From positions 1 to 9,119 of IMG/VR virus record IMGVR_UViG_2698536443_000014: a stretch of 9,119 nt of DNA; one strand, written 5' to 3'. The position numbers and the translations under genes are program-made. Positions 1-9,119 of the stretch are shown in pieces. The notes under the pieces are model-generated. The model ran no database searches, was not told the origin of the DNA, and saw nothing but the letters and a program-made list of their open reading frames with translations. The stretch's first letter is position 1. The number at the start of each line of letters is the position of its first letter. This DNA comes from a virus (lineage: Duplodnaviria; Heunggongvirae; Uroviricota; Caudoviricetes).

Positions 1-157
1 CCAGACCCGCCATAACCAGCTGGGTCAGTATTAACTGGCAGCGTTCGCGTGAAAGGTAAGTATTCTGCGCAATCTCCCCGACTGTCGCCGGTTCGGTGAC
101 GCTCAATTCATTAAACACCACTCTGGCGGTTTCGGTCATATCTTGCTGTTTTAGCAT
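1..157 (-). CDS. Partial CDS (5' end only; continues past window start), hypothetical protein with helix-turn-helix-like N-terminus
   Basis: Reverse-strand ATG at 157..155 opens a frame that stays open to position 1 (MLKQQDMTETARVVFNELSVTEPATVGEIAQNTYLSRERCQLILTQLVMAGL...). Not in the supplied ORF track because it has no stop in the window. The GEIAQ...SRERCQLIL segment has an HTH-like pattern. Identity unknown. Confidence 0.35.
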   Translation of the reverse strand, partial: MLKQQDMTETARVVFNELSVTEPATVGEIAQNTYLSRERCQLILTQLVMAGL

Positions 158-276
158 GTCTTTTTCCCTTCTGGTTAACATGACATACCAATAACTCTTG
201 TCTAAAAAGCCAGCAAGATAAAAAGTCAGTATTCACGACCACCAGCGTGTTTACTGTACTGCACCAAGTTTACAGG

Positions 277-304
277 TACAAAAAACCCGCTCAGTGGCGG
301 GTTT
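277..304 (-). terminator. Rho-independent terminator downstream of the 434..1051 gene
   Basis: Perfect 8-bp stem (283-290 AAACCCGC / 297-304 GCGGGTTT) with a 6-nt loop. On the minus-strand transcript the hairpin is followed by a U-run (UUUUUUGU, partly within the stem). It lies about 130 nt after the stop codon at 434. Confidence 0.55.
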
Positions 305-433
305 AAGTTGTGTGGCGAAGTAACCACTCTTAACACACTAATAGCATTTTTGTTATAACACAAGTAGCTCATTCAGTATTTTTAGAATCTTGACTTTCTT
401 AAGCACGGCGAACTCTGAATACCAAACATAAAA

Positions 434-1051
434 TCAATTATCTTCCAGGCCGGATGCTATCAACGAAAGCCTCTCAAAAAACGCTGTAGCAGCCTTGTCC
501 AAAGTTGAATAAGTACTGTATTCTCCGTGTTCGGGACCAACCACTACCCATGGTCGTCTTTTTGGGATTCGGGACTTCTCAGAAATCACTGTTCCAGATA
601 TACCAATATCAATTGTTACACCTGTTATTATTTTCTCTTCATCTCTTTCCCTGAACTCAATTGCCATAAATGCCGTTTTTTTTCGTTTCCCGTTTTTAAA
701 AAAATCAAATAAAGCAAAGCGATGCTCATTAAAATCAACACCCCATCGTCCTTCAGGATAAAGGGCATGAAAGTTGTCATTTACGCTCTGCATCGTCTCA
801 TAAGCTTTAACTTCTAAATCTCCATAGTGCATAGATACCGCGCAGGAGTCACTGGGTAACTGTATTTTCCCAAGATTGAAAACCTTTACTGCTCCAGAAC
901 TATGGCATCTTGCCCGCAATTTATCCCCATTTATACTAATCGGAGAAATATTCCTTAATGTTCCGGGCTGGCTCCCTCCTAAGTAAACGACTGTTAAAGA
1001 TTGCTTATTTTCAATTGCATCAACTAATACATGCTCTACATTTTTATCCAT
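434..1051 (-). CDS. Hypothetical protein, AT-rich accessory (moron-like) gene immediately downstream of Q; function unknown
   Basis: The ORF track gives 434..1078. I prefer the internal ATG at 1051 (MDKNVEHV...) because it is preceded by GGGAGA at about 5-nt spacing, whereas the ATG at 1078 has no Shine-Dalgarno sequence. Stop TGA at 436..434. The gene is visibly more AT-rich than flanking genes. I recognise no family signature in the protein. Confidence 0.6.
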   Translation of the reverse strand: MDKNVEHVLVDAIENKQSLTVVYLGGSQPGTLRNISPISINGDKLRARCHSSGAVKVFNLGKIQLPSDSCAVSMHYGDLEVKAYETMQSVNDNFHALYPEGRWGVDFNEHRFALFDFFKNGKRKKTAFMAIEFRERDEEKIITGVTIDIGISGTVISEKSRIPKRRPWVVVGPEHGEYSTYSTLDKAATAFFERLSLIASGLEDN

Positions 1052-1126
1052 AATAATCTCCCAATGAACAGGTATCATCAGGAGGTTATAATAAAATATG
1101 ATTATTTACTTTGATTGAATTTATTA

Positions 1127-1498
1127 CTATATGTAACAATCAATTTCTAAAGATACCCCCAACATTGCCAGACAACCGTCAATAAACCCTTCAGCTTTCT
1201 GCAGTCTGATAACAACCTGATTAAGTGATATCCCCAGTTTTACCCCCAACACCCGTAATGTAACCCCATACACATAATACATTTCCAGTAATTCGTATTG
1301 ATACGGTTCCTTTTTCTTAAGAACTGTCATCGCAGAGCTAATGATCAGGCCATCGTCATCGCTACATTGCGGGCGGGATTTTACTTTCGAAGGAATTAAT
1401 CCCTTAAAACCTGCAGCAACAGATGACCATTCCACATCCTCGTGATTATTTGCCACCCATGCCCCCCAACGTTCAAGAACCATTTGAATATCACGCAT
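1127..1498 (-). CDS. Late-gene antitermination protein Q (phage 82 / QuuD-QuuQ type)
   Basis: Protein MRDIQMVLERWGAWVANNHEDVEWSSVAAGFKGLIPSKVKSRPQCSDDD... matches from memory the N-terminus of Q82-type antiterminators of E. coli lambdoid prophages. Start taken at the ATG at 1498, preceded by GGAGAAAG; the track's TTG at 1513 is less likely. Stop TAG at 1129..1127. Confidence 0.85.
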   Translation of the reverse strand: MRDIQMVLERWGAWVANNHEDVEWSSVAAGFKGLIPSKVKSRPQCSDDDGLIISSAMTVLKKKEPYQYELLEMYYVYGVTLRVLGVKLGISLNQVVIRLQKAEGFIDGCLAMLGVSLEIDCYI

Positions 1499-1515
1499 CA
1501 ACTTTCTCCACAAAA

Positions 1516-2511
1516 TCAGGCCAGCACGCCTATTGCCAGCGCACGATCGATAAAACGAAATATCAGCTCCAGCTGGGAGCCATACTTCTCTTCAAATGCC
1601 ACGGTATCCGCATGCAGCTCGTCGTGATGCTTTCTGCACAAAGGCAGCACGAAGAGGTCATGCGCTTTTGTACCCATTCCCCCCTGACCGTGGCCTATCA
1701 GGTGGTGGGGATCATCAGCAGGCTTTCCACAACATGCACACGGCTGCGTCTTAACCCAGCGCGTGTACTTTTCGTTAACCCAGCGGCGACGTTTTGGGCG
1801 TAACATAAAAGACTCCGGCGACTCCGGATCCACTTTCAGCGCCAGCACCTTTTTCGCTTTATTCTGGATGATGCTGGTGGCCGGAACCGAAGGCACAAGG
1901 TCACTCTCCCGGGTGACAGACGGCACAACAGGCTTCGGTAATCTCAGTGCCTTACGGGCTGCACTTTCCGGTAAGGCATCCGCCAGATCATTACGAACCA
2001 GCCACCAGCACAGTTCCGGCATTGTCACAACGTGACTGTCATCAAAACCGAGATCCCGACGCACAACAGACAACACCCAGCGGGCACAGTTATCCGTTGC
2101 CATTGATTCCAGCCGTTCCGTGAACTGATCGCGCAGCTGGTTATCGCAGTGCCAGCACAGACGGATTGCGCCCGGCGCGTGTCGCATTGTGGTCATGTTC
2201 TCGCTGTGCCAGTCGGAATGAGGCCACTGGCAACCTTTTTCACGAAGTAACCAGCTTTCAAGACATTCCACGCCACCAGCACGACGGATCACTGCCTCAT
2301 TGCGGAACACGGCCCGAACGGCAGGATCATCCGCCAGCGGTTGTGATGCTGCCGGAACGGCACCACTGGCAAAAGATGAATAACGTTCCGGCTCAGGCTC
2401 CAGCAGGACACGCCCCTGCATAAACAGGGGCATCAGCTCTGAACCGGGTCTGAACAATACGATCCCCATACGCGGGGCAATTTCAGGGGTCAGTAGTGCT
2501 CTCACAGTCAC
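1516..2511 (-). CDS. DUF968-family (YdfU-like) phage protein with C-terminal Cys/His HNH-like motif
   Basis: 331-aa ORF. The C-terminal segment (CACCGKPADDPHHLIGHGQGGMGTKAHDLFVLPLCRKHHDELH) is a typical CxxC...HH...H motif of YdfU/DUF968 proteins that sit upstream of Q in lambdoid prophages. The start is uncertain: the track uses GTG at 2511, one base after the upstream gene's TGA, with weak ribosome-binding context. Confidence 0.65.
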   Translation of the reverse strand: MTVRALLTPEIAPRMGIVLFRPGSELMPLFMQGRVLLEPEPERYSSFASGAVPAASQPLADDPAVRAVFRNEAVIRRAGGVECLESWLLREKGCQWPHSDWHSENMTTMRHAPGAIRLCWHCDNQLRDQFTERLESMATDNCARWVLSVVRRDLGFDDSHVVTMPELCWWLVRNDLADALPESAARKALRLPKPVVPSVTRESDLVPSVPATSIIQNKAKKVLALKVDPESPESFMLRPKRRRWVNEKYTRWVKTQPCACCGKPADDPHHLIGHGQGGMGTKAHDLFVLPLCRKHHDELHADTVAFEEKYGSQLELIFRFIDRALAIGVLA

Positions 2512-2512
2512 C

Positions 2513-3322
2513 TCAATGAACGGTATCGAGCAGCTTTAACAGCTCAGGAAATCGGGATTCGAAGAAATGCGGCTGCGTCTCGCGCGGATTTGCAGGACTG
2601 GTGATGTTCTTGCCGAACATGCAGCCTTTCGCGGTCAGCGACCAGAATTTTTTGATGTTGTTAATCGCGGTACGGCTGTATCGTTCGCGTTGTTCAACGA
2701 TCCCCAGCTTCACCATCTGGTGATATGCCTGATTAGCCGTCAGGCGGATACCATACTGCTTCAGCAGTGCACTCAGTGACAGCGTGGGGCGGCTTGAGCC
2801 ATCAGGCGCGTCAGCAGGAGCATCAATGGCATAGCGCGGTGCCAGATTCGGTAAGCCAACAGCCTCCTGGAGTTTCTGACAGGCCCCAAGCACTGAAGAG
2901 TTAGACAGGTTTAACTCCCTGCGCATAAAGTCCAGCAGAATCACTCCAGCCTGCATCTTGTCAGCAGCCTGCCCGGATAATTTTTCCGGTGCGCTGGTTA
3001 CCATATCGAAAGTACGGATCACCTTCAGATGGAATGACGGGCTGATCCACATTGCATAGGCATACACCAGTTCTTTGCAGACATACGTCCCCTGGTTATT
3101 TCCGCCATTAATGACGCTAACTGGTTGATTTTGTTCCAGAGGCGGAATTCCACCCTCGGTGAAAAGTTGTTCAATCAATTCACAGGTTTGCTTATTGGAG
3201 AGCCAGTATTTCGGGCGTTTTTTTTGTTCTCCCCCGGCTGCCCTGTGCAGATCGTTCAGGCTGTAACGCCCATAAGCATCACGACGAACTTCAATACCAT
3301 CAATGACCATCAGATTATTCAT
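2513..3322 (-). CDS. KilA-N domain protein (antirepressor/Bro-like family)
   Basis: N-terminus (VIDGIEVRRDAYGRYSLNDLHRAAGG...RPKYWLSNKQTCELIEQL...GTYVCKELVYAYAMWISPSFHLKVI) matches the KilA-N DNA-binding domain signature. Strong Shine-Dalgarno (AAGAGGAGAAA) upstream of ATG 3322. Stop TGA at 2515..2513. Confidence 0.8.
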   Translation of the reverse strand: MNNLMVIDGIEVRRDAYGRYSLNDLHRAAGGEQKKRPKYWLSNKQTCELIEQLFTEGGIPPLEQNQPVSVINGGNNQGTYVCKELVYAYAMWISPSFHLKVIRTFDMVTSAPEKLSGQAADKMQAGVILLDFMRRELNLSNSSVLGACQKLQEAVGLPNLAPRYAIDAPADAPDGSSRPTLSLSALLKQYGIRLTANQAYHQMVKLGIVEQRERYSRTAINNIKKFWSLTAKGCMFGKNITSPANPRETQPHFFESRFPELLKLLDTVH

Positions 3323-3341
3323 ACTTCGTTTCTCCTCTTAA

Positions 3342-3731
3342 TCAGGCGGCTGCACCCGCCGTTTTCTCGTACTTACTGATAGTGATCTCGACCTTCCCTC
3401 CCGGGATAACCGATCCCCACTCAACCAGCATTCTTTTCACCTGACTGTCGTCTTCCCACACACCCGCGTGGGTCAGGGCGTCAAACAGCGCCTTGTTATA
3501 GTTGTCCAGATCGCGGATCCGGTTATCCGGAGGAAACAACACGATCTCCACTGAAGCAGGTGCCGACGTTGGTTTCGGCAGACGACGTAACTGCTCAATG
3601 ATGGCGGCACACGCCGCGCTCTGGAATTTTCGTCCCGCCGTGCTTATCAGGCTCTTACCAGCAAACGCCCCTTTGTTGGGGTGTCGCCAGTACGTGTTCA
3701 CGCTGGGCGGAAACGGCAGAATCAGCTTCAT
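3342..3731 (-). CDS. rusA: Holliday junction resolvase RusA (crossover junction endodeoxyribonuclease)
   Basis: 129-aa protein (MKLILPFPPSVNTYWRH...DNRIRDLDNYNKALFDALTHAGVWEDDSQV...) carries the RusA family signature, including the catalytic-region D-x-D-N motif. Start ATG 3731 overlaps the upstream stop (ATGA). Confidence 0.85.
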   Translation of the reverse strand: MKLILPFPPSVNTYWRHPNKGAFAGKSLISTAGRKFQSAACAAIIEQLRRLPKPTSAPASVEIVLFPPDNRIRDLDNYNKALFDALTHAGVWEDDSQVKRMLVEWGSVIPGGKVEITISKYEKTAGAAA

Positions 3732-4054
3732 ACTTTCAGGCCCCTCTCATGTAACCAGTGGGCTGCACGCAGCCTGGCGTTTTCCTCACCGGCAAGCAGT
3801 GAGCGGATAATCCCGACCGCCTCGCTGTCGTCGTCCTTCACCGCGGTATGAAGCGTGATGCCCCGGGCCACGCCACGCTTTATCGTGATGACGCCTTTTT
3901 TCTCCAGTGCGCGAAGATGCTCCACTGCTGCATTCACTGAACGGTATCCCAGCATGGTTGCCACCTCCTGATTGGTTGGCGGAAAGCCACGCTCTTTCTG
4001 GTAAGAAATCAGCATATCCAGCACCTGCTGCTGGCATTGAGTTAACGTCGTCAT
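3728..4054 (-). CDS. LexA N-terminal DNA-binding-domain-like protein lacking the S24 peptidase domain
   Basis: MTTLTQCQQQVLDMLISYQKERGFPPTNQEVATMLGYRSVNAAVEHLRALEKKGVITI resembles the LexA winged-helix DNA-binding domain (MKALTARQQEVF...[36 protein letters not shown]). The ORF is only 108 aa, so there is no autoprotease domain. ATGA overlaps at both ends. Confidence 0.65.
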   Translation of the reverse strand: MTTLTQCQQQVLDMLISYQKERGFPPTNQEVATMLGYRSVNAAVEHLRALEKKGVITIKRGVARGITLHTAVKDDDSEAVGIIRSLLAGEENARLRAAHWLHERGLKV

Positions 4055-4704
4055 GCCGCCATCTCCCTGACAAGTTTTTCTGCCTGCTGGCGAACCTGCG
4101 CCAGAAAGGCCTCACCACATGCCTCAAGTTCATCGCGCCCGATGTAGCTGATTGCCGGTCCCTTCCAGGTCTTGTCGAAAACAGCAATAGCACCAGCGAA
4201 GAACGCTCCTGTCGGCACCTGCTTCTCGTCTTTCGGGATAAACCAGACAGGCAGTTCAAAACCAATACGCCCGCGAATAAAAGCAATATGATCTGCATCT
4301 TCCGGCCACCACACTTCGCTGGTGGCAGCTTTGATCAGGAAAACATAGCGCCCGCCTTTATCACGCATGGCACTGGCATGCTTCATGATGTAACGCATGC
4401 CGGTGATGTATTGCCCCTCATGCTGACTGGCGCGGCTGTATGGGGGATTTCCAAAGGCAGCACCTTTAAGCTCCGCAAGACGTTCTGACCAGTCATGCGC
4501 CAGCGCGTTGTCTTCCGCCGTGTAATACGCGGCGCATTTGGCGTTATCACCGTCAGTAAACAGATCCAGAACAAACGGGCCAAACAGGGTGTTAATTCCC
4601 CAGAAAATGTTGTCCGGTGTGCGCCACTGATCGCCCACTTCCTTCAGTTCATGGGCTGGTTTGTTTCGCAGTTCCACCAGCGCCCGGCAATATTTATTAC
4701 TCAT
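4051..4704 (-). CDS. Phage N6-adenine DNA methyltransferase (Dam-like, NPPY motif)
   Basis: Contains the FGNPPY catalytic motif and upstream DLFTD-type motif typical of phage Dam-family methyltransferases. Start taken at ATG 4704..4702 (MSNKYCR...), which forms a TAATG overlap with the upstream stop; the track's 4737 start is a GTG extension. Confidence 0.8.
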   Translation of the reverse strand: MSNKYCRALVELRNKPAHELKEVGDQWRTPDNIFWGINTLFGPFVLDLFTDGDNAKCAAYYTAEDNALAHDWSERLAELKGAAFGNPPYSRASQHEGQYITGMRYIMKHASAMRDKGGRYVFLIKAATSEVWWPEDADHIAFIRGRIGFELPVWFIPKDEKQVPTGAFFAGAIAVFDKTWKGPAISYIGRDELEACGEAFLAQVRQQAEKLVREMAA

Positions 4705-5192
4705 TAAGCCCCCACGTAATTCCCTGACAGATACCACTCTTCACCTGATGCAGCGCGCTTGCTGCTTTTCCGTAAGCACCGCTCACGACGTGCCAGAAAA
4801 TTGTTTCGTTCTGGCTGGGAGTGGCTTTCACGGAATGCCGCCATCCACACGGTTGCAGCACGACGAAATAAGCCCCTGGACTCCAGTTCTTCCGCCTGGC
4901 GGGCCAGGCACAAAATCACCCGCGGGTCGTTAGTGCCGACATAGAAATTGCGCACAGGTCTGGTTTCACGAACTGGTTGCCGTTCCGCCTCCGGCGATAT
5001 CTTTGTCTGGCGCGGGAAATGTCTGCGTGCATCCCCTTCACAACGGTGAGCCACACGCCCACTCTGACGTAACTTGCTTGCTGACTGCAGAACGCGCTGC
5101 CGTGAGTAACCTGTAAAAGCATCCGCAATGTCTCCGGAAGTACACCCCGGATGGGCTTCAATGAATTTCTGAACGTCATTCAAAAGACTCAT
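4704..5192 (-). CDS. Hypothetical protein with C-terminal PerC/ANR-like motif
   Basis: 162 aa from ATG 5192 (Shine-Dalgarno AGGGGG; the track's GTG at 5198 is 2 codons upstream). The C-terminal segment LARQAEELESRGLFRRAATVWMAAFRE...RRERC resembles, from memory, the conserved core of PerC/ANR-family small regulators. The N-terminal half is unassigned. Confidence 0.5.
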   Translation of the reverse strand: MSLLNDVQKFIEAHPGCTSGDIADAFTGYSRQRVLQSASKLRQSGRVAHRCEGDARRHFPRQTKISPEAERQPVRETRPVRNFYVGTNDPRVILCLARQAEELESRGLFRRAATVWMAAFRESHSQPERNNFLARRERCLRKSSKRAASGEEWYLSGNYVGA

Positions 5193-5194
5193 GC

Positions 5195-6136
5195 TCACCC
5201 CCTGAATCCTGCCGGGATCTGGCTGTAGTCCACGTTGTCGTAACTGGCTTTGAAGTACGGGTCCTCGCGTTTTTCGGTGTACGTGCTGACGGACGGCGAT
5301 AAGCGCAGGGAAAGCTCATCCCATTTTTCCCGCAGCTTCGACGGGCTGAGCACGTTACGGCACCAGAACGGATCGCGACTGACGCGGCTGTACATCTCGC
5401 AGATTTGTTTATGAGTATGACCATCCTGCACACACATCAGGCGAATTTCGTTTGCCCAGGCTGTCCAGTTCGGTTCTTTGGGACGAACCACCTCGCCGTC
5501 ACATTCGGCAGCCTGCTCGTACAGGGCAATGATTTTTTTCCAGAGCCACTGTGCGCAGGTCAAATCATCCTGCGTCCCCCACTGGCGCTTTTTAGGGCTG
5601 AATACAACCGCATCAGGATGGCGAGTTAAAAAATCCTGTTCATCCGTCTGCGTGTCCGGTTGCGAAGCGTCCGGACGAGAAGGTTTTTTATCTGACGGAT
5701 CATGTTTTGATTTTACTGACGGATCCCCGCCAGATTCTGACGGGTGAAAACCCGCTTTTTTACCAGATTTCGACGCATCAAATTTTGACGGGTCAGATTT
5801 TGATGCGTCAGATTTTGACGGGTCAGAATCTGACAGTTGAGAAAATGCCGCTGCCTGAAGCTTCGCAACGTTAAGCTGATAAACATTCGACGCATTGCGG
5901 TTACCCTGGCGACGCGCCTTACGCGTTAACCAGCCTTCTGCTTCCAGCCGTGCGATAGCCGTTCTGACGGTACTCATCCCCGCGCCAATCTGGCGGGCAA
6001 TGGTTTCAATTGATGGCCAGCACACACCTTCGTCATTACTGAAATCAGCCAGGCGGGCCATAATTGCCACGCTGGATAACTTCATGCCTGACGCAGCGCA
6101 ACCATCCCATACATAGCCGGTTAATTTAGTGCTCAT
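5195..6136 (-). CDS. Phage replication initiation protein (N-terminal HTH domain, repeat-rich linker, DnaT-like C-terminal region)
   Basis: The N-terminus (LSSVAIMARLADFSNDEGVCWPSIETIARQIGAGMSTVRTAIARLEAEGWL) is a winged-HTH typical of prophage replication initiators. The central linker is encoded by tandem repeats. The C-terminal region resembles the DnaT-like domain of prophage replication proteins, called from memory. It occupies the O-gene position after cro/cII. Confidence 0.7.
   Translation of the reverse strand: MSTKLTGYVWDGCAASGMKLSSVAIMARLADFSNDEGVCWPSIETIARQIGAGMSTVRTAIARLEAEGWLTRKARRQGNRNASNVYQLNVAKLQAAAFSQLSDSDPSKSDASKSDPSKFDASKSGKKAGFHPSESGGDPSVKSKHDPSDKKPSRPDASQPDTQTDEQDFLTRHPDAVVFSPKKRQWGTQDDLTCAQWLWKKIIALYEQAAECDGEVVRPKEPNWTAWANEIRLMCVQDGHTHKQICEMYSRVSRDPFWCRNVLSPSKLREKWDELSLRLSPSVSTYTEKREDPYFKASYDNVDYSQIPAGFRG
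5690..5836. repeat. Iteron-like direct repeats (candidate replication origin) inside the initiator gene
   Basis: About five tandem copies of a 14-15-bp unit (TCAGATTTTGACGGG, TCAGATTTTGATGCG, TCAAATTTTGACGGG, CCAGATTTCGACGCA, TCAGAATCTGACAG) between about 5762 and 5836, plus degenerate copies with the TCTGACGG core at 5691, 5715 and 5735. In the protein frame they encode S-D-x-S-K repeats. Confidence 0.5.
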
Positions 6137-6145
6137 GACCGACCT

Positions 6146-6484
6146 CTATTTCCCTGAATTTACGACGAAACTGTTCGAGCGGACTGAAGCATTCATGCTC
6201 ATAACCTTCGCGGAGGTAGATAACCCGTTGTGTTTCCGGCTCCCAACGAATGACTCTGACGGGCACTCCGTAGTGATCTTTGAACCAGCGGTTAACTTGT
6301 CGCAAAGGACTGTCTCCTTCTGCCGGTTGAAATCACCCACAGCCCACTCTGCAAAGCTGTGGGTTACAATTTCCCTGTCACCTGGTACATTCACTGCATA
6401 GCAATATTCCACCTTCGCTTTTCCACCCGGAACAGGAAGCGCAATCAGTTGCGAGCGACGGTAGTGTGTTGTTAAACTGTTCAT
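6146..6484 (-). CDS. Hypothetical protein (C-terminal half doubtful; possible frameshift or overlapping gene)
   Basis: Start ATG 6484 overlaps the stop of the upstream CII-like gene (ATGA), which supports a real gene start. The N-terminal ~50 aa look protein-like, but the C-terminal half is Ser/Thr-rich and low-complexity, while an alternative frame over 6126..6305 looks far more protein-like (see findings). Confidence 0.4.
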
Positions 6485-7065
6485 GCGTTAGTTTCTCCAC
6501 AACCAGAAGCAATCGACGCCACGACGCCCGGAGCTGCACACTCGCGGGCGTTACTCTTTTCCGGCGCACAAAAAACACGAAATAACAGTGTTAAATGCTC
6601 CTGCCACTTCGCCATTACTTGGTAGCTGTTCTCTTCGATTTGCTCACGCTCAGCCTGGTCAATAACTCCATCAGCAGTTGCCTTGCGTAAGTACTGGGAA
6701 TGCTTGCCAATCCATTCTATTGACTCCATCAGCCGCTGATTAATGTCACCATTGTCAATGTCATCAATGACCACCAGCGGCACAAACACCCCATTACTAC
6801 GACGGGCTATTGCATCTGTTACATGCCTGGTACCACTGGCATCCTGTAAAACCATGGCCCACTCAAGTGGAAAAATTTGATCCCCACCGCTACGCAGTCT
6901 GTTATGCAATTGATCTTTTGCTGGGGTGATATCATCAGATTTATACAAACCAAGAATTTCTGCTGCTTCCTCATAGCCATGAGGTAAATCAGCAATCGTT
7001 CTTCGTATTGCTGCCACCAGCCATGCTGGTTGTTTATCAACTTTCCATTCAGGTTCTTTACCCAC
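6481..7065 (-). CDS. CII-like early regulatory protein (CP76/YdaT-type position and size), putative
   Basis: 194-aa ORF immediately downstream of Cro, GTG start at 7065 preceded by TGAGGA at about 6-nt spacing. The position is that of lambda cII or of the YdaT/CP76-type CII equivalents of E. coli cryptic prophages. The family call is by context and memory only. Confidence 0.45.
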
Positions 7066-7092
7066 GGTTAATTCCTCATTTCTGTGGTGTTT

Positions 7093-7290
7093 TTATGCCG
7101 CAGCACTGTTAGTCTTTTGATATAAAGACACGTCAACTTTCAGTTTCCCGTTAGTAATTTTTTCTAACTGGTACGCTCGGCCTTCAGGAATAATCTCAGG
7201 CCACTCTGAAACAGACGGATGCTTAATACCTAGGGCTTCGGCGGTTTTACAAACTCCGCCGAAATAATTAATCACGTCGGATTTCCGCAT
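7093..7290 (-). CDS. cro: Cro-like repressor (P22 Cro type)
   Basis: MRKSDVINYFGGVCKTAEALGIKHPSVSEWPEIIPEGRAYQLEKITNGKLKVDVSLYQ aligns along its length with P22 Cro as I recall it (MYKKDVIDHFGTQRAVAKALGISDAAVSQWKEVIPEKDAYRLEIVTAGALKYQ). It is divergent from the repressor gene across the operator region, with Shine-Dalgarno GGGAGA. Confidence 0.8.
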   Translation of the reverse strand: MRKSDVINYFGGVCKTAEALGIKHPSVSEWPEIIPEGRAYQLEKITNGKLKVDVSLYQKTNSAAA

Positions 7291-7321
7291 TTCTGTCTCC
7301 CGTTAAATTACGTTAAGCAGA

Positions 7322-7387
7322 AATGTAGGATATCCAACATGCTAATGTCAAGAATCCTACATGGGCATGTGGTAGGATTGCCTACAT
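7322..7387. promoter_or_regulatory. Right operator region (OR) with pR-like promoter (minus strand) overlapping the presumptive pRM
   Basis: 18-bp near-palindrome ATGTAGGATATCCAACAT at 7323..7340. Further half-site copies ATCCTACAT at 7354..7362 and GTAGGATTGCCTACAT at 7372..7387. On the minus strand: -35 TTGACA (complement of 7346..7351), 17-bp spacer, -10 CTACAT/TACATT (complement of about 7322..7328), directed toward cro. Confidence 0.6.
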
Positions 7388-8039
7388 GATGAACATGAGT
7401 GATCGTATTCGCCAAAGGCGAAAAGAACTGAACCTGACACAACAAGCACTGGCTGATTTGACTGGTGTGAACCGTGTCACGGTTACTGGATGGGAAAAGG
7501 ACGACTACCAACCAAATGGAGCCAACCTTCAAGCCCTAGCCAACGCACTTAAATGCGATCCTCTGTGGCTTGTTAGCGGAAAAGGCTCGCCTGAACCAAA
7601 GATAAATCTAAAACCTGAAATATTCGCAGTTAAAAAAGTCCCCCTAATCTCGTGGGTTCAGGCGGGTTCATGGACAATGACGGAGCCTGGTGTCAGGAAA
7701 GAAGATGCTGAAGAGTGGGTTTATACTACCGCCCTTGTATCAGAAATGGCATTTGCACTACGGGTCCGTGGTGATTCAATGACCAATCCCCTCGGCTCAC
7801 CATCGATACCAGAAGGTTCTATCGTTATCGTAGAGCCAGATATTATTGATACAGAGTGTATTAACGGAAAAATCGTTGTTGCCCATATCAATGGTGGGCA
7901 AGAAGCGACACTCAAAAAATTTGTTGAGGACTGGCCGAACAGGTATCTCGTCCCACTAAATCCTAACTATAAAACTATTGAATGCGGTGAGAACTGTAGA
8001 ATAGTTGGTCTTGTCAAACAAGTAATAATGGATTTTTGA
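7386..8039 (+). CDS. cI: CI-like prophage repressor (HTH-XRE N-terminal domain, S24 LexA-like peptidase C-terminal domain)
   Basis: N-terminal HTH (IRQRRKELNLTQQALADLTGVNRVTVTGWE). C-terminal S24 autopeptidase signature with GDSM serine motif and a downstream lysine (LRVRGDSMTNPL...EATLKKF). Starts at the edge of the operator region, consistent with a short-leader pRM transcript. Confidence 0.85.
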   Translation: MMNMSDRIRQRRKELNLTQQALADLTGVNRVTVTGWEKDDYQPNGANLQALANALKCDPLWLVSGKGSPEPKINLKPEIFAVKKVPLISWVQAGSWTMTEPGVRKEDAEEWVYTTALVSEMAFALRVRGDSMTNPLGSPSIPEGSIVIVEPDIIDTECINGKIVVAHINGGQEATLKKFVEDWPNRYLVPLNPNYKTIECGENCRIVGLVKQVIMDF

Positions 8040-8060
8040 CACATCTTCCTCACTATCGCA

Positions 8061-8085
8061 AAACCGGGGTATCCCCGGTTTTTTT
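8061..8085 (+). terminator. Rho-independent terminator after the repressor gene
   Basis: Stem ACCGGGG (8063-8069) / CCCCGGT (8073-8079) with a 3-nt loop, followed by a T7 run (8079-8085), 22 nt after the repressor stop codon. Confidence 0.6.
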
Positions 8086-8101
8086 ATGAGCCTATCTTTT
8101 T

Positions 8102-8155
8102 ATGTAGGATAACCAACATAAACTCTTGACACTCGCATGTTGGATATCCTACATT
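8102..8155 (+). promoter_or_regulatory. Left operator region (OL) with pL-like promoter
   Basis: ATGTAGGATAACCAACAT (8102..8119) and ATGTTGGATATCCTACAT (8137..8154, the exact reverse complement of the OR site at 7323..7340) flank and overlap -35 TTGACA (8126..8131), a 17-18-bp spacer and -10 CTACAT/TACATT (8149..8155). Spacer and -10 are almost identical to the pR-like promoter. Confidence 0.55.
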
Positions 8156-8313
8156 TGTTTTTAGAGTTGTGGTGAATGCGCAGGCTGATGCGCGAAAGAC
8201 ATTGCAGCTATTGCGGAAAAGAGCTGTTCGGCGGGGCAATTAAACGCCCGTGAGAGTCTGAAATAACCGCAAGCCGGAGATCAGCATCGGTCACCACAGC
8301 AGCCACTGCTTTG

Positions 8314-8360
8314 GCGGTACCAGTTTGTACACTTGCTTCCGGCTGGTACCGCTCTTTTTA
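8314..8360 (+). terminator. Long hairpin plus T-run in the pL leader (terminator-like; boxA-like CGCTCTTTTTA overlaps its 3' side)
   Basis: Perfect 10-bp stem GCGGTACCAG (8314-8323) / CTGGTACCGC (8343-8352) with a 19-nt loop, followed by TCTTTTTA. CGCTCTTTTTA at 8350..8360 resembles the boxA consensus (CGCTCTTTA). The long loop makes efficient termination uncertain. Confidence 0.4.
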
Positions 8361-8482
8361 CAAAACAGAGAAGAGCATCACCGGACGACGGGCTCATAAC
8401 CCAATCCACCCGGGCGGCTGCCACCGCAGGTGTTCTTCTCTGTTTTGTGGAGAAACTAATATCTTGTGCAGAGGAAAATAGA

Positions 8483-9029
8483 ATGAAATTACCAAAATTT
8501 CGTAACGCAATTGTGTACCGAGCAACATTACCTAGTATACAGGCTATTGAAGGTCATCTTCTCGAACTCCCTTATTCTGAAATCGGGGAAACAGAATTTT
8601 CACGGTCCTCTTTTGTAGAGAATCCTGTCACTGGTGAACTGGTAACTCCGATATCTGGTGGGTACGCAATGGTAATCCGTCATGATCAGAAAATAATTCC
8701 CCGACATGTCGTCATGAAAGAAGCTAATTCTCGAATCCGAACAATCGAAAATATGTCCGGGAATAAATTAAAGCGTGCCGAACGACTGGCCATTATTGAT
8801 AACGTACGAGTAGATCTATGCAAACAGGCATTTGTTAAGTCTACGCTGATTCTTGCATTGTACAGCACTGATGAGAAATTATTGGTAATCAACACAACCA
8901 ATAAAATAATAGCCGGTATGGTATGCGCAATGCTGATTAAGGTTGTCGGTTCAGTGAAAACAGAAACAATCAACATCAGTGATATCAAGAATGGACTGAC
9001 TACACGCCTGAATAACTACATCAATGGTG
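8483..9029 (+). pseudogene. RdgC-family recombination-associated protein gene, 3'-truncated by IS1 insertion
   Basis: ATG 8483 with Shine-Dalgarno GAGGAAAA; the track's 8333 start is a TTG extension through the leader. N-terminus MKLPKFRNAIVYRA matches the RdgC N-terminus (MLWFKNLMVYRL as recalled), with further colinear similarity over about 180 aa. The frame ends at a TAA (9032..9034) supplied by the IS1 terminus; full RdgC is about 300 aa. The gene is AT-rich. Confidence 0.6.
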
Positions 9030-9119
9030 GGTAATGACTCCAACTTACTGATAGTGTTTTATGTTCAGATAATGCCCGATGACCTTGTCATGCAGCTCCA
9101 CCGATTTTGAGAACGACAG
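9030..9119 (-). mobile_element. IS1 insertion sequence, terminal 90 bp (right inverted repeat end; element continues beyond window)
   Basis: 9030..9119 (GGTAATGACTCCAACTTACTGATAGTGTTTTATGTTCAGATAATGCCCGATGACCTTGTCATGCAGCTCCACCGATTTTGAGAACGACAG) matches the reverse complement of the IS1 right end, including the terminal inverted repeat GGTAATGACTCCAACTTATTGAT, with about 2 mismatches. Compared from memory. Confidence 0.85.
9045..9119 (-). CDS. insB: IS1 transposase InsB, 3' end (partial; start lies beyond window end)
   Basis: The minus-strand frame reads ...LSFSKSVELHDKVIGHYLNIKHYQ followed by a stop (TAA, complement of 9045..9047), which matches the InsB C-terminus as I recall it. Confidence 0.75.
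   Translation of the reverse strand: MSFSKSVELHDKVIGHYLNIKHYQ

Follow-up and report, generated by a model that had tools for sequence, protein, structure and literature searches.

The 9,119-nucleotide (nt) stretch of viral DNA analysed here (positions 1 to 9,119 of IMG/VR virus record IMGVR_UViG_2698536443_000014; below, the window) carries on its minus strand two small genes that share part of their length in different reading frames. Frame A, which is ymfM (phrog_1170), occupies 6146..6484, from an ATG at 6484..6482 to a TAG at 6148..6146, and encodes 112 amino acids (aa). Frame B, in the -1 (= +2) register relative to frame A, occupies 6126..6305, from a TTG at 6305..6303 to a TAA at 6128..6126, and encodes 59 aa belonging to Pfam family PF13973 (DUF4222). 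The 160 nt at 6146..6305 are common to both: they specify residues 1–53 of frame B, with the first base of its codon 54, and the tail of frame A, approximately residues 60–112. The pair lies between a gene for a YmfL-family/CII-like regulator (6481..7065, minus strand; NCBIfam NF041471 phage_reg_YmfL, E = 8.4e-54; Pfam Phage_CP76, E = 1.3e-6) and one for an O-like replication initiator with an HTH_36 N-terminal domain (5195..6136, minus strand; Pfam HTH_36, E = 4.3e-11), labelled “DNA replication protein O” or “primosomal protein” in phage records. Very probably these are two genuine, independently initiated genes, with about 160 nt shared out of frame and maintained by selection as a conserved dual-coding region.

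Frame A starts within the stop codon of its upstream neighbor, its ATG overlapping the TGA of the ymfL/CII-like gene (ATGA), and an in-frame TAA lies two codons 5′ of it at 6490..6488. The product is identical at 111 of 112 residues to YmfM of the e14 element of Escherichia coli K-12 (b1148, “cell division inhibitor YmfM”), and matches phrog_1170 over residues 1–112 (E = 7.6e-70); a Pfam search gave no family match. Its N-terminal domain, residues 1 to about 55 (6320..6484, minus strand), lies outside the overlap and is conserved: M1, Q12, P17, G20, and Y29 are invariant in the alignment, the ratio of nonsynonymous to synonymous substitution rates (dN/dS) is 0.30–0.51, and the AlphaFold2 model has a mean predicted local distance difference test score (pLDDT) of 76–88 per 10-residue block over residues 11–60. 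These first ~55 residues are accordingly modeled as a small, fast-evolving folded domain, and the domain occurs alone in proteins of 59–78 aa from phage phiNP, Entomohabitans, and several metagenomes. The rest is of a different character, with 29% Ser+Thr in residues 61–112 vs. 12% in residues 1–60, and with residues 66–97 and 102–106 predicted to be unstructured (pLDDT <50).

Frame B matches the DUF4222 profile at 67.3 bits (cut-off 27; E = 8.6e-19) over profile positions 3–52 of 53, with coverage beginning at its residue 2, and is a member of that family. Against diverged relatives its dN/dS is 0.04–0.10, with synonymous sites near saturation. A database search returned 139 DUF4222 homologues, 43–102 aa long (mostly 59–86) and all stand-alone. 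AlphaFold2 predicts with confidence a small beta-barrel plus one short helix (pLDDT 84); a fold search of the Protein Data Bank (PDB) with this model retrieved only generic SH3/KOW/Tudor-like small barrels, none with E below 0.001, and a profile search of DUF4222 against PDB sequences gave no match. The start codon is preceded, at a 7-nt spacing and within the frame A coding sequence, by the Shine-Dalgarno-like GAAGGAGA (6320..6313, minus strand).

For comparison, 122 related loci were assembled from at least 15 genera, ranging from Escherichia to Pantoea and Mixta; they comprise 61 distinct sequences, which fall into 24 lineages (<88% nucleotide identity; mean nucleotide identity between lineages 72%). 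Frame B begins at the same aligned codon throughout, with TTG in 87 loci, ATG in 34, and GTG in one. TTG is characteristic of the E. coli/Shigella e14 lineage and ATG of other genera, outside E. coli; purine-rich GGAG/GAGG elements precede the start in most lineages. The position of the frame B stop varies from +180 to +261, counted from its start. A 6-bp hairpin (6303–6320) appears in the predicted fold for the e14 lineage, without statistical support; it would pair GAAGGA, the Shine-Dalgarno element of frame B, with a UCCUUU that takes in the first U of the UUG. By this folding model such a hairpin might further damp DUF4222 initiation, unless opened by frame A ribosomes.

The original prediction, which had flagged a frame anomaly here, stands in most of its detail. 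It had considered the frame A start credible for its ATGA coupling to the upstream gene, the C-terminal half of frame A Ser/Thr-rich, and the 59-aa peptide of the other frame much more protein-like, all as found above, and had placed the TTG, the GAAGGAGA element with its spacing, and the TAA correctly. It had also described the TAA as overlapping the ATG of the replication gene. The genes do overlap, the last 11 nt of frame B being the first 11 of the replication gene (ATGAGCACTAA), but the ATG itself (6136..6134) is not overlapped by the stop. Of its two alternatives, two genes out of frame over ~160 bp with a TTG start for the second is the one favored by the conservation of that start (as ATG in the non-E. 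coli loci) and by the open state and codon choice described next.

Stop codons and codon choice in the overlap

Across the overlap frame A contains no stop in any of the 122 loci, remaining open to about +157 from the frame B start, and the third frame has between one and seven stops in every sequence. An exact dynamic-programming calculation, conditioned on each frame B protein and on local codon usage, puts the chance of an open frame A at 0.015–0.13 (median 0.058); summed over the 24 lineages, log10 P is -32. Identity between lineages at fourfold-degenerate sites without stop risk is 0.37, close to saturation.

Codon choice in frame B is where this becomes visible. Before a codon starting with A or G, GTN and CTN codons end in T 61 times and in C 39 times, and never in A or G: no stop-making base in 100 cases. 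The same contexts in the 141 neighboring open reading frames (ORFs) that served as control for codon usage and stop contexts yield a +1-frame stop in 28% of cases, rising to 58% for a following A (Fisher p = 1.1e-14). At positions where it is harmless, GTG is used freely for valine.

The stop-risk sites in the window, all on the minus strand, can be read individually. Val4 is GTT before AAC (6294..6296), where GTA or GTG would make TAA or TGA in frame A; the 61 distinct sequences have only GTT, CTC, CTT, or ATT in this column, where ~60% stop-making codons are expected. Val16-Arg17-Val18 (GTC AGA GTC, before ATT; 6252..6260) contains two such sites. At Val16, all 34 sequences in which the next codon begins with A have GTC, with GTG and GTA confined to those in which it begins with C; this covariation with the next codon is seen at Val14 as well. 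Val18 is represented only by GTC, GTT, and ATT. Val28, GTT before ATC (6222..6224), is GTT in 59 sequences and GTC in one, with neither GTA nor GTG, where 52% are expected. Leu43 is CTC before GAA (6177..6179), where CTA or TTA would make TAG; its homologous column (46) has CTC in 42 sequences and CTT in 16, with CTG and TTG confined to cases where the next codon begins with T. One feature of this last column is of a different kind: before GAA or GAG, CTG too is avoided, although frame A would gain only a Trp codon (TGG) and no stop, and in neighboring genes 61% of such contexts end in G. The tail may be mildly constrained here, or this one column may reflect chance.

DUF4222 genes that are not overlapped behave differently. 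In seven of eight such lineages the +1 frame contains stops, always at least two: between two and five in L126 and L131–L135, and seven in rgdR, discussed below. By these sequence comparisons, the openness of frame A across the DUF4222 gene is kept by direct selection.

The residues encoded by the open frame are another matter. Differences within the overlap are distributed over frame B codon positions one to three as 0.081, 0.043, and 0.332; position three varies most, and most changes therefore fall on second codon positions of frame A. Fourfold-degenerate frame B sites in the overlap have an identity of 0.555, not above the 0.639 that these loci show in their non-overlapped replication gene. 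For the frame A tail, the apparent dN/dS in its own frame is 1.3–9.7. Openness alone is conserved in the tail while its residues drift, with selection in the overlap acting on frame B for its amino acid sequence and on frame A only for the absence of stops and for the stop position. Purifying selection is thus found in both frames of the shared segment, as expected for dual coding, but without constraint on frame A residues. The locus offers a clean natural case of an ORF kept open over 24 deeply diverged lineages while its residues drift freely, a sign that selection acts on translation as such, or on a tail that is disordered, and not on a folded product.

The end of ymfM and the surrounding operon

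The frame A ORF ends at +160 (stop codon from +157) in 109 of the 122 loci and at +163 to +169 in another 11, wherever frame B ends. In the window, stop and downstream signal form a single element (6143..6149, minus strand): the TAG at 6148..6146 is drawn from the Ile53 ATA of frame B plus the first base (G) of the Glu54 codon, and runs directly into GAGG at 6146..6143, the Shine-Dalgarno-like element of the replication gene, whose ATG (6136..6134) follows the stop by 9 nt in the frame of frame A. The frame B codon in this column is xTA in 56 of the 61 sequences and ATA in 40, although ATA accounts for 8% of Ile codons in neighboring genes. TAGAGG or TAAAGGA followed after 3–9 nt by the replication ATG is found in 22 of the 24 lineages. 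The position of the frame A stop is thus also under selection and, with ATGA at the ymfL/ymfM junction and 3–9 nt at the replication gene, upstream stops lie close to downstream starts, as in a chain of coupled genes.

In the window (6134–6148) and in representatives of these 22 lineages, the frame A stop and the replication ATG are always in one frame, 3, 6, or 9 nt apart. Therefore ymfM and the replication gene form a single frame broken by one stop codon. Read-through of that stop seems unlikely, because many lineages use TAA.

The whole of 5195–7290 on the minus strand is the early-right (PR-type) operon of a lambdoid, e14/SfII-like E. coli prophage, in the order cro, YmfL-family/CII-like gene, frame A/frame B region, and O-like replication gene. 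The first gene, cro, is at 7290..7093 (minus strand), with a PR-like promoter match at 7351..7322; a search for internal promoters from cro through to the replication gene gave none. Such prophages are common: a 601-nt region was matched in 2679 of 5426 complete E. coli genomes, about half, and bases 6100–6500 are 100% identical to Escherichia phage Kati. Inside the replication gene is a direct repeat with a 15-nt period, in five copies at 5764–5838 and again at 5716–5745, with CAGATTTTGACGGGT-like units; the protein there reads PSKSDASKSDPSKFDASKSG. By analogy with lambda O, these CAGATTTTGACGGGT-like repeats resemble the iterons of an origin located within the initiator gene.

Relatives carry the same parts in other arrangements, of which the overlapped form is the commonest. 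In L135 the two genes are in tandem, with the N-domain gene stopping immediately 5′ of the DUF4222 ATG and the replication ATG overlapped by the DUF4222 stop; in L126 an antirepressor gene separates them; and in some relatives the N-domain gene is present and DUF4222 absent. The N-domain and DUF4222 genes are thus separable modules. Whether overlapped or in tandem, the arrangements examined have an ORF ending within ~10 nt of the replication start. The rgdR gene (ECs1581; L141, E. coli O157:H7 Sakai, 8305–8604) likewise lies directly 5′ of its element's primase gene, with stop and start overlapping, and DUF4222 genes seem to be recurrently the last before a replication gene.

Two further kinds of relative deserve mention. 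A few database proteins (P0085, P0166, P0178, P0191, P0115, and P0010) switch between frames A and B, at differing points; they are singletons or known from few contigs, and are most likely indels or assembly errors in a dual-coding stretch. In phage SfV (L122, 1577–1765) and Stx2a phage Stx2_14040 (L123, 1358–1546), the isrK and C4 antisense RNA genes are directly 3′ of the DUF4222 gene (Rfam, 62–82 bits). The frame A ORFs of the SfV and Stx2 phages, 277–278 aa long and annotated as “regulatory protein” (Pfam Phage_ASH), were considered as proof of frame A translation and dropped, as they run across both RNA genes; these long ORFs, and perhaps part of Pfam Phage_ASH, may be translated RNA genes.

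Function of the open frame and rival explanations

That the region is truly dual coding, and not frameshifted, can be held with high confidence. The second alternative in the original prediction, a single ~115-aa gene with the frame A N-terminus and the frame B C-terminus broken by an indel near 6305..6335, whether through sequencing error or pseudogenization, is extremely improbable. Fused proteins do exist in the databases (P0085, of 102 aa, P0166, P0178, and P0191), but each is known once, from a single contig, with its own junction, a pattern usual for deletions or assembly indels. All 122 loci, whatever their genus, have the two frames arranged identically; the DUF4222 homologues stand alone, with Pfam coverage from near the first residue; and in L005, L028, L029, L038, and L123 a frame B stop lies 0–6 nt 5′ of the frame B ATG. 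The check that had been proposed, for homologues encoding one continuous protein across the frame junction as expected if the gene here were a pseudogene, came out the other way, with two ORFs everywhere except in the singleton chimeras. The pattern named beforehand as telling against an overlapping gene was encountered only in part: homologues have an uninterrupted frame A with a conserved stop, but its tail residues are not conserved, and the frame B peptide, far from lacking conservation, is the best-conserved sequence of the region.

Programmed -1 frameshifting is known from dnaX and from the lambda G/GT tail chaperone, and here would give an N-domain::DUF4222 fusion by a shift from frame A into frame B. 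The register is right for it, and frame B is open for 27 nt 5′ of the TTG in the window. It is nonetheless very improbable. An X XXY YYZ heptamer is absent from the permissive junction window in 23 of the 24 lineages, this one included, and none is conserved; no stimulatory RNA structure was found, the fold of 6350..6270 (-21.4 kcal/mol) having z = -0.52 relative to shuffled sequences; and initiation downstream is independent, since frame B has its own conserved start (ATG, TTG, or GTG) and Shine-Dalgarno element, cut off from the upstream sequence by an in-frame stop in the five lineages just listed. In other phages the two genes are in tandem or split by another gene. Finally, a frameshift would not need frame A to be open for 52 further codons, and it is. 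Sequencing error, pseudogene, and programmed frameshift were all rejected, with no slippery site, no stimulatory structure, and no recurrent fused homologue.

If both genes are translated, their expression might proceed as follows. Ribosomes would start gene A (ymfM) at the ATG overlapping the ymfL stop, make the N-domain, and read on, in +1 register relative to gene B, through the whole DUF4222 domain to the TAG 9 nt before the replication ATG. Gene B, for an RgdR-like protein with a putative SH3/KOW-like small beta-barrel, would have a separate start at TTG 6305, served by a Shine-Dalgarno element that lies within gene A, and would end 8 nt into the replication gene. The frame A tail would be an overprinted, disordered extension, whose main role could be that of a bridge keeping the stream of ymfL/ymfM ribosomes on the message up to the replication ribosome-binding site, with translational coupling by termination-reinitiation. 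The operon would then be a chain of coupled ORFs, through ATGA at ymfL/ymfM and next through the ymfM stop on the replication ribosome-binding site, and in the E. coli lineage the weak TTG start, together with frame A traffic, would keep DUF4222 output low. It seems evenly balanced whether frame A is kept open for such coupling or because the tail peptide has some function.

Several points weigh against this picture. A literature search for ribosome profiling or proteomics showing translation of frame A or frame B found no report, and the coupling role is read from sequence. In this lineage frame B also ends close to the replication ATG, so it could couple alone, and the replication ribosome-binding site is not sequestered in stable RNA structure (fold z = +1.7). 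The frame A tail could have a role as a disordered peptide with freely variable sequence. One stand-alone DUF4222 lineage (L127–L130), the exception among the eight above, has a +1 frame open up to nt 169, so that chance can produce an open frame in a single lineage.

Two other explanations leave frame B as a gene and differ in what they make of the tail. DUF4222 might be the only functional product of the overlap, with ymfM functionally ending after its N-domain and the open tail a chance or inherited by-product. The lack of constraint on the tail residues and their predicted disorder would be as expected, the N-domain works elsewhere as a ~60-aa protein, and the Prokaryotic Genome Annotation Pipeline (PGAP) omits ymfM. 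But the openness persists despite near-saturated synonymous sites, the 100 contexts without a stop-making base depart from the 28% expected at p = 1e-14, Val16 and Val14 covary with their following codons, the stop position is conserved by way of rare xTA codons, and stand-alone DUF4222 genes gather stops in that frame. A by-product tail is very improbable. The main rival to the tail as a bridge is that dual coding is real and the tail is needed by the YmfM protein, as a disordered linker, an interaction segment, or a degradation signal, and not for ribosome delivery. It is the full 112-aa ORF whose expression leads to filamentation (bioRxiv 10.1101/2020.11.19.390815); disordered regions tolerate change while length and composition are kept, and the tail is Ser/Thr/Ala/Gly-rich in all lineages; and the harmless CTG, giving Trp in frame A, is avoided at Leu43 as well. 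Yet it is mostly the conserved frame B protein that sets this composition, frame B has no extra synonymous constraint beyond the stop-risk sites, N-domain proteins without the tail exist, and the frame A stop follows the position of the replication ribosome-binding site rather than the place where frame B ends. A need of YmfM for its tail is less likely than not.

Comparison with known systems

The closest system is ymfM of the e14 element itself (b1148, SfiC): like frame A it encodes 112 aa, with one substitution, between the same ymfL and replication genes, and embedded in it, unannotated, is an identical DUF4222 ORF, TTG and Shine-Dalgarno element included. The difference is in treatment, since annotation and papers take the K-12 locus as one gene and here it is found to be dual-coding. 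Current annotation is in conflict: K-12 (L009, 3323–3700) and phage Kati list only the 112-aa ymfM, PGAP genomes and Pantoea phage AH07 list only the DUF4222 ORF, called by PGAP in RefSeq E. coli as exactly the 180 nt of frame B (WP_001250269.1, “DUF4222 domain-containing protein”), and none of the records compared (K-12, Kati, PGAP genomes, AH07, and phage records) lists both. The presence of two genes would settle this conflict, in which K-12 and most phage records have ymfM only and PGAP has DUF4222 only, and which affects thousands of genomes.

It also bears on what is known of sfiC. The study of ymfM-induced filamentation used the whole ORF cloned in pBAD24 and whole-gene deletions, and mentions no frame-specific mutant (bioRxiv 10.1101/2020.11.19.390815); later ymfM work likewise relied on whole-ORF clones or deletions, and an expression-library screen that included ymfM did not resolve the frames. 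A literature search found no paper linking ymfM to ribosome profiling, an overlapping ORF, or DUF4222. If pBAD-ymfM is exactly the annotated ORF, it would carry the DUF4222 Shine-Dalgarno element, the TTG, and 53 of 59 codons, amounting to the whole folded domain, and ymfM deletions remove both genes. Whole-ORF clones and whole-gene deletions thus do not tell which of the two products is behind the filamentation; if the studied ymfM/sfiC locus does encode two proteins, the assignment needs frame-specific mutants. Tentatively, the SOS-inducible division block credited to YmfM (SfiC) may be wholly or partly due to the embedded RgdR-like DUF4222 protein. Were DUF4222 the division inhibitor, the ymfM tail would be only a translated bridge to the replication gene.

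The one studied member of the DUF4222 family is RgdR (ECs1581) of prophage CP-933C/Sp7 of E. coli O157:H7, a regulator that reportedly activates LEE1 and type III secretion and represses motility (Flockhart et al., 2012, PMC3378721; PMC10877973), in which the RGD tripeptide at residues 20–22 was reported to be important for activity (PMC3378721, PMC10877973). RgdR scores 82 bits against the Pfam family in which frame B scores 67, and the two are 41% identical over 49 residues (BLASTP, E = 3e-11; alignment from RgdR residue 24); both are small prophage proteins encoded directly 5′ of a replication gene. RgdR is longer, at 99 aa, with N- and C-terminal extensions, and by Pfam coordinates its RGD corresponds to V-N-R at frame B residues 4–6, so that the tripeptide is not present there. 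The rgdR gene, with its seven stops in the +1 frame, is not overlapped. By this comparison, E. coli prophages that are very common carry a relative of this virulence regulator in their early operon.

The arrangement itself has parallels. Out-of-frame overlaps are familiar in phages from lambda Rz/Rz1, phiX174 D/E and A/B, and the MS2 lysis gene, and the present locus belongs with them: as in those pairs, a small, separately started gene shares DNA with a larger one in a different frame, and both frames are maintained. It differs in that frame B is not fully embedded, running 20 nt past the frame A stop, in that the overlapped part of the longer gene is conserved only as an open frame and not in sequence, and in that the two products are not known to act together. 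Termination-reinitiation coupling, for example at ATGA junctions, is likewise familiar from tightly packed operons. The ATGA of ymfL/ymfM and the ymfM stop on the replication Shine-Dalgarno element, kept in 120 of the 122 loci, are of this type; what would set the present operon apart is that the putative coupling ORF crosses the whole of a second gene on its way.

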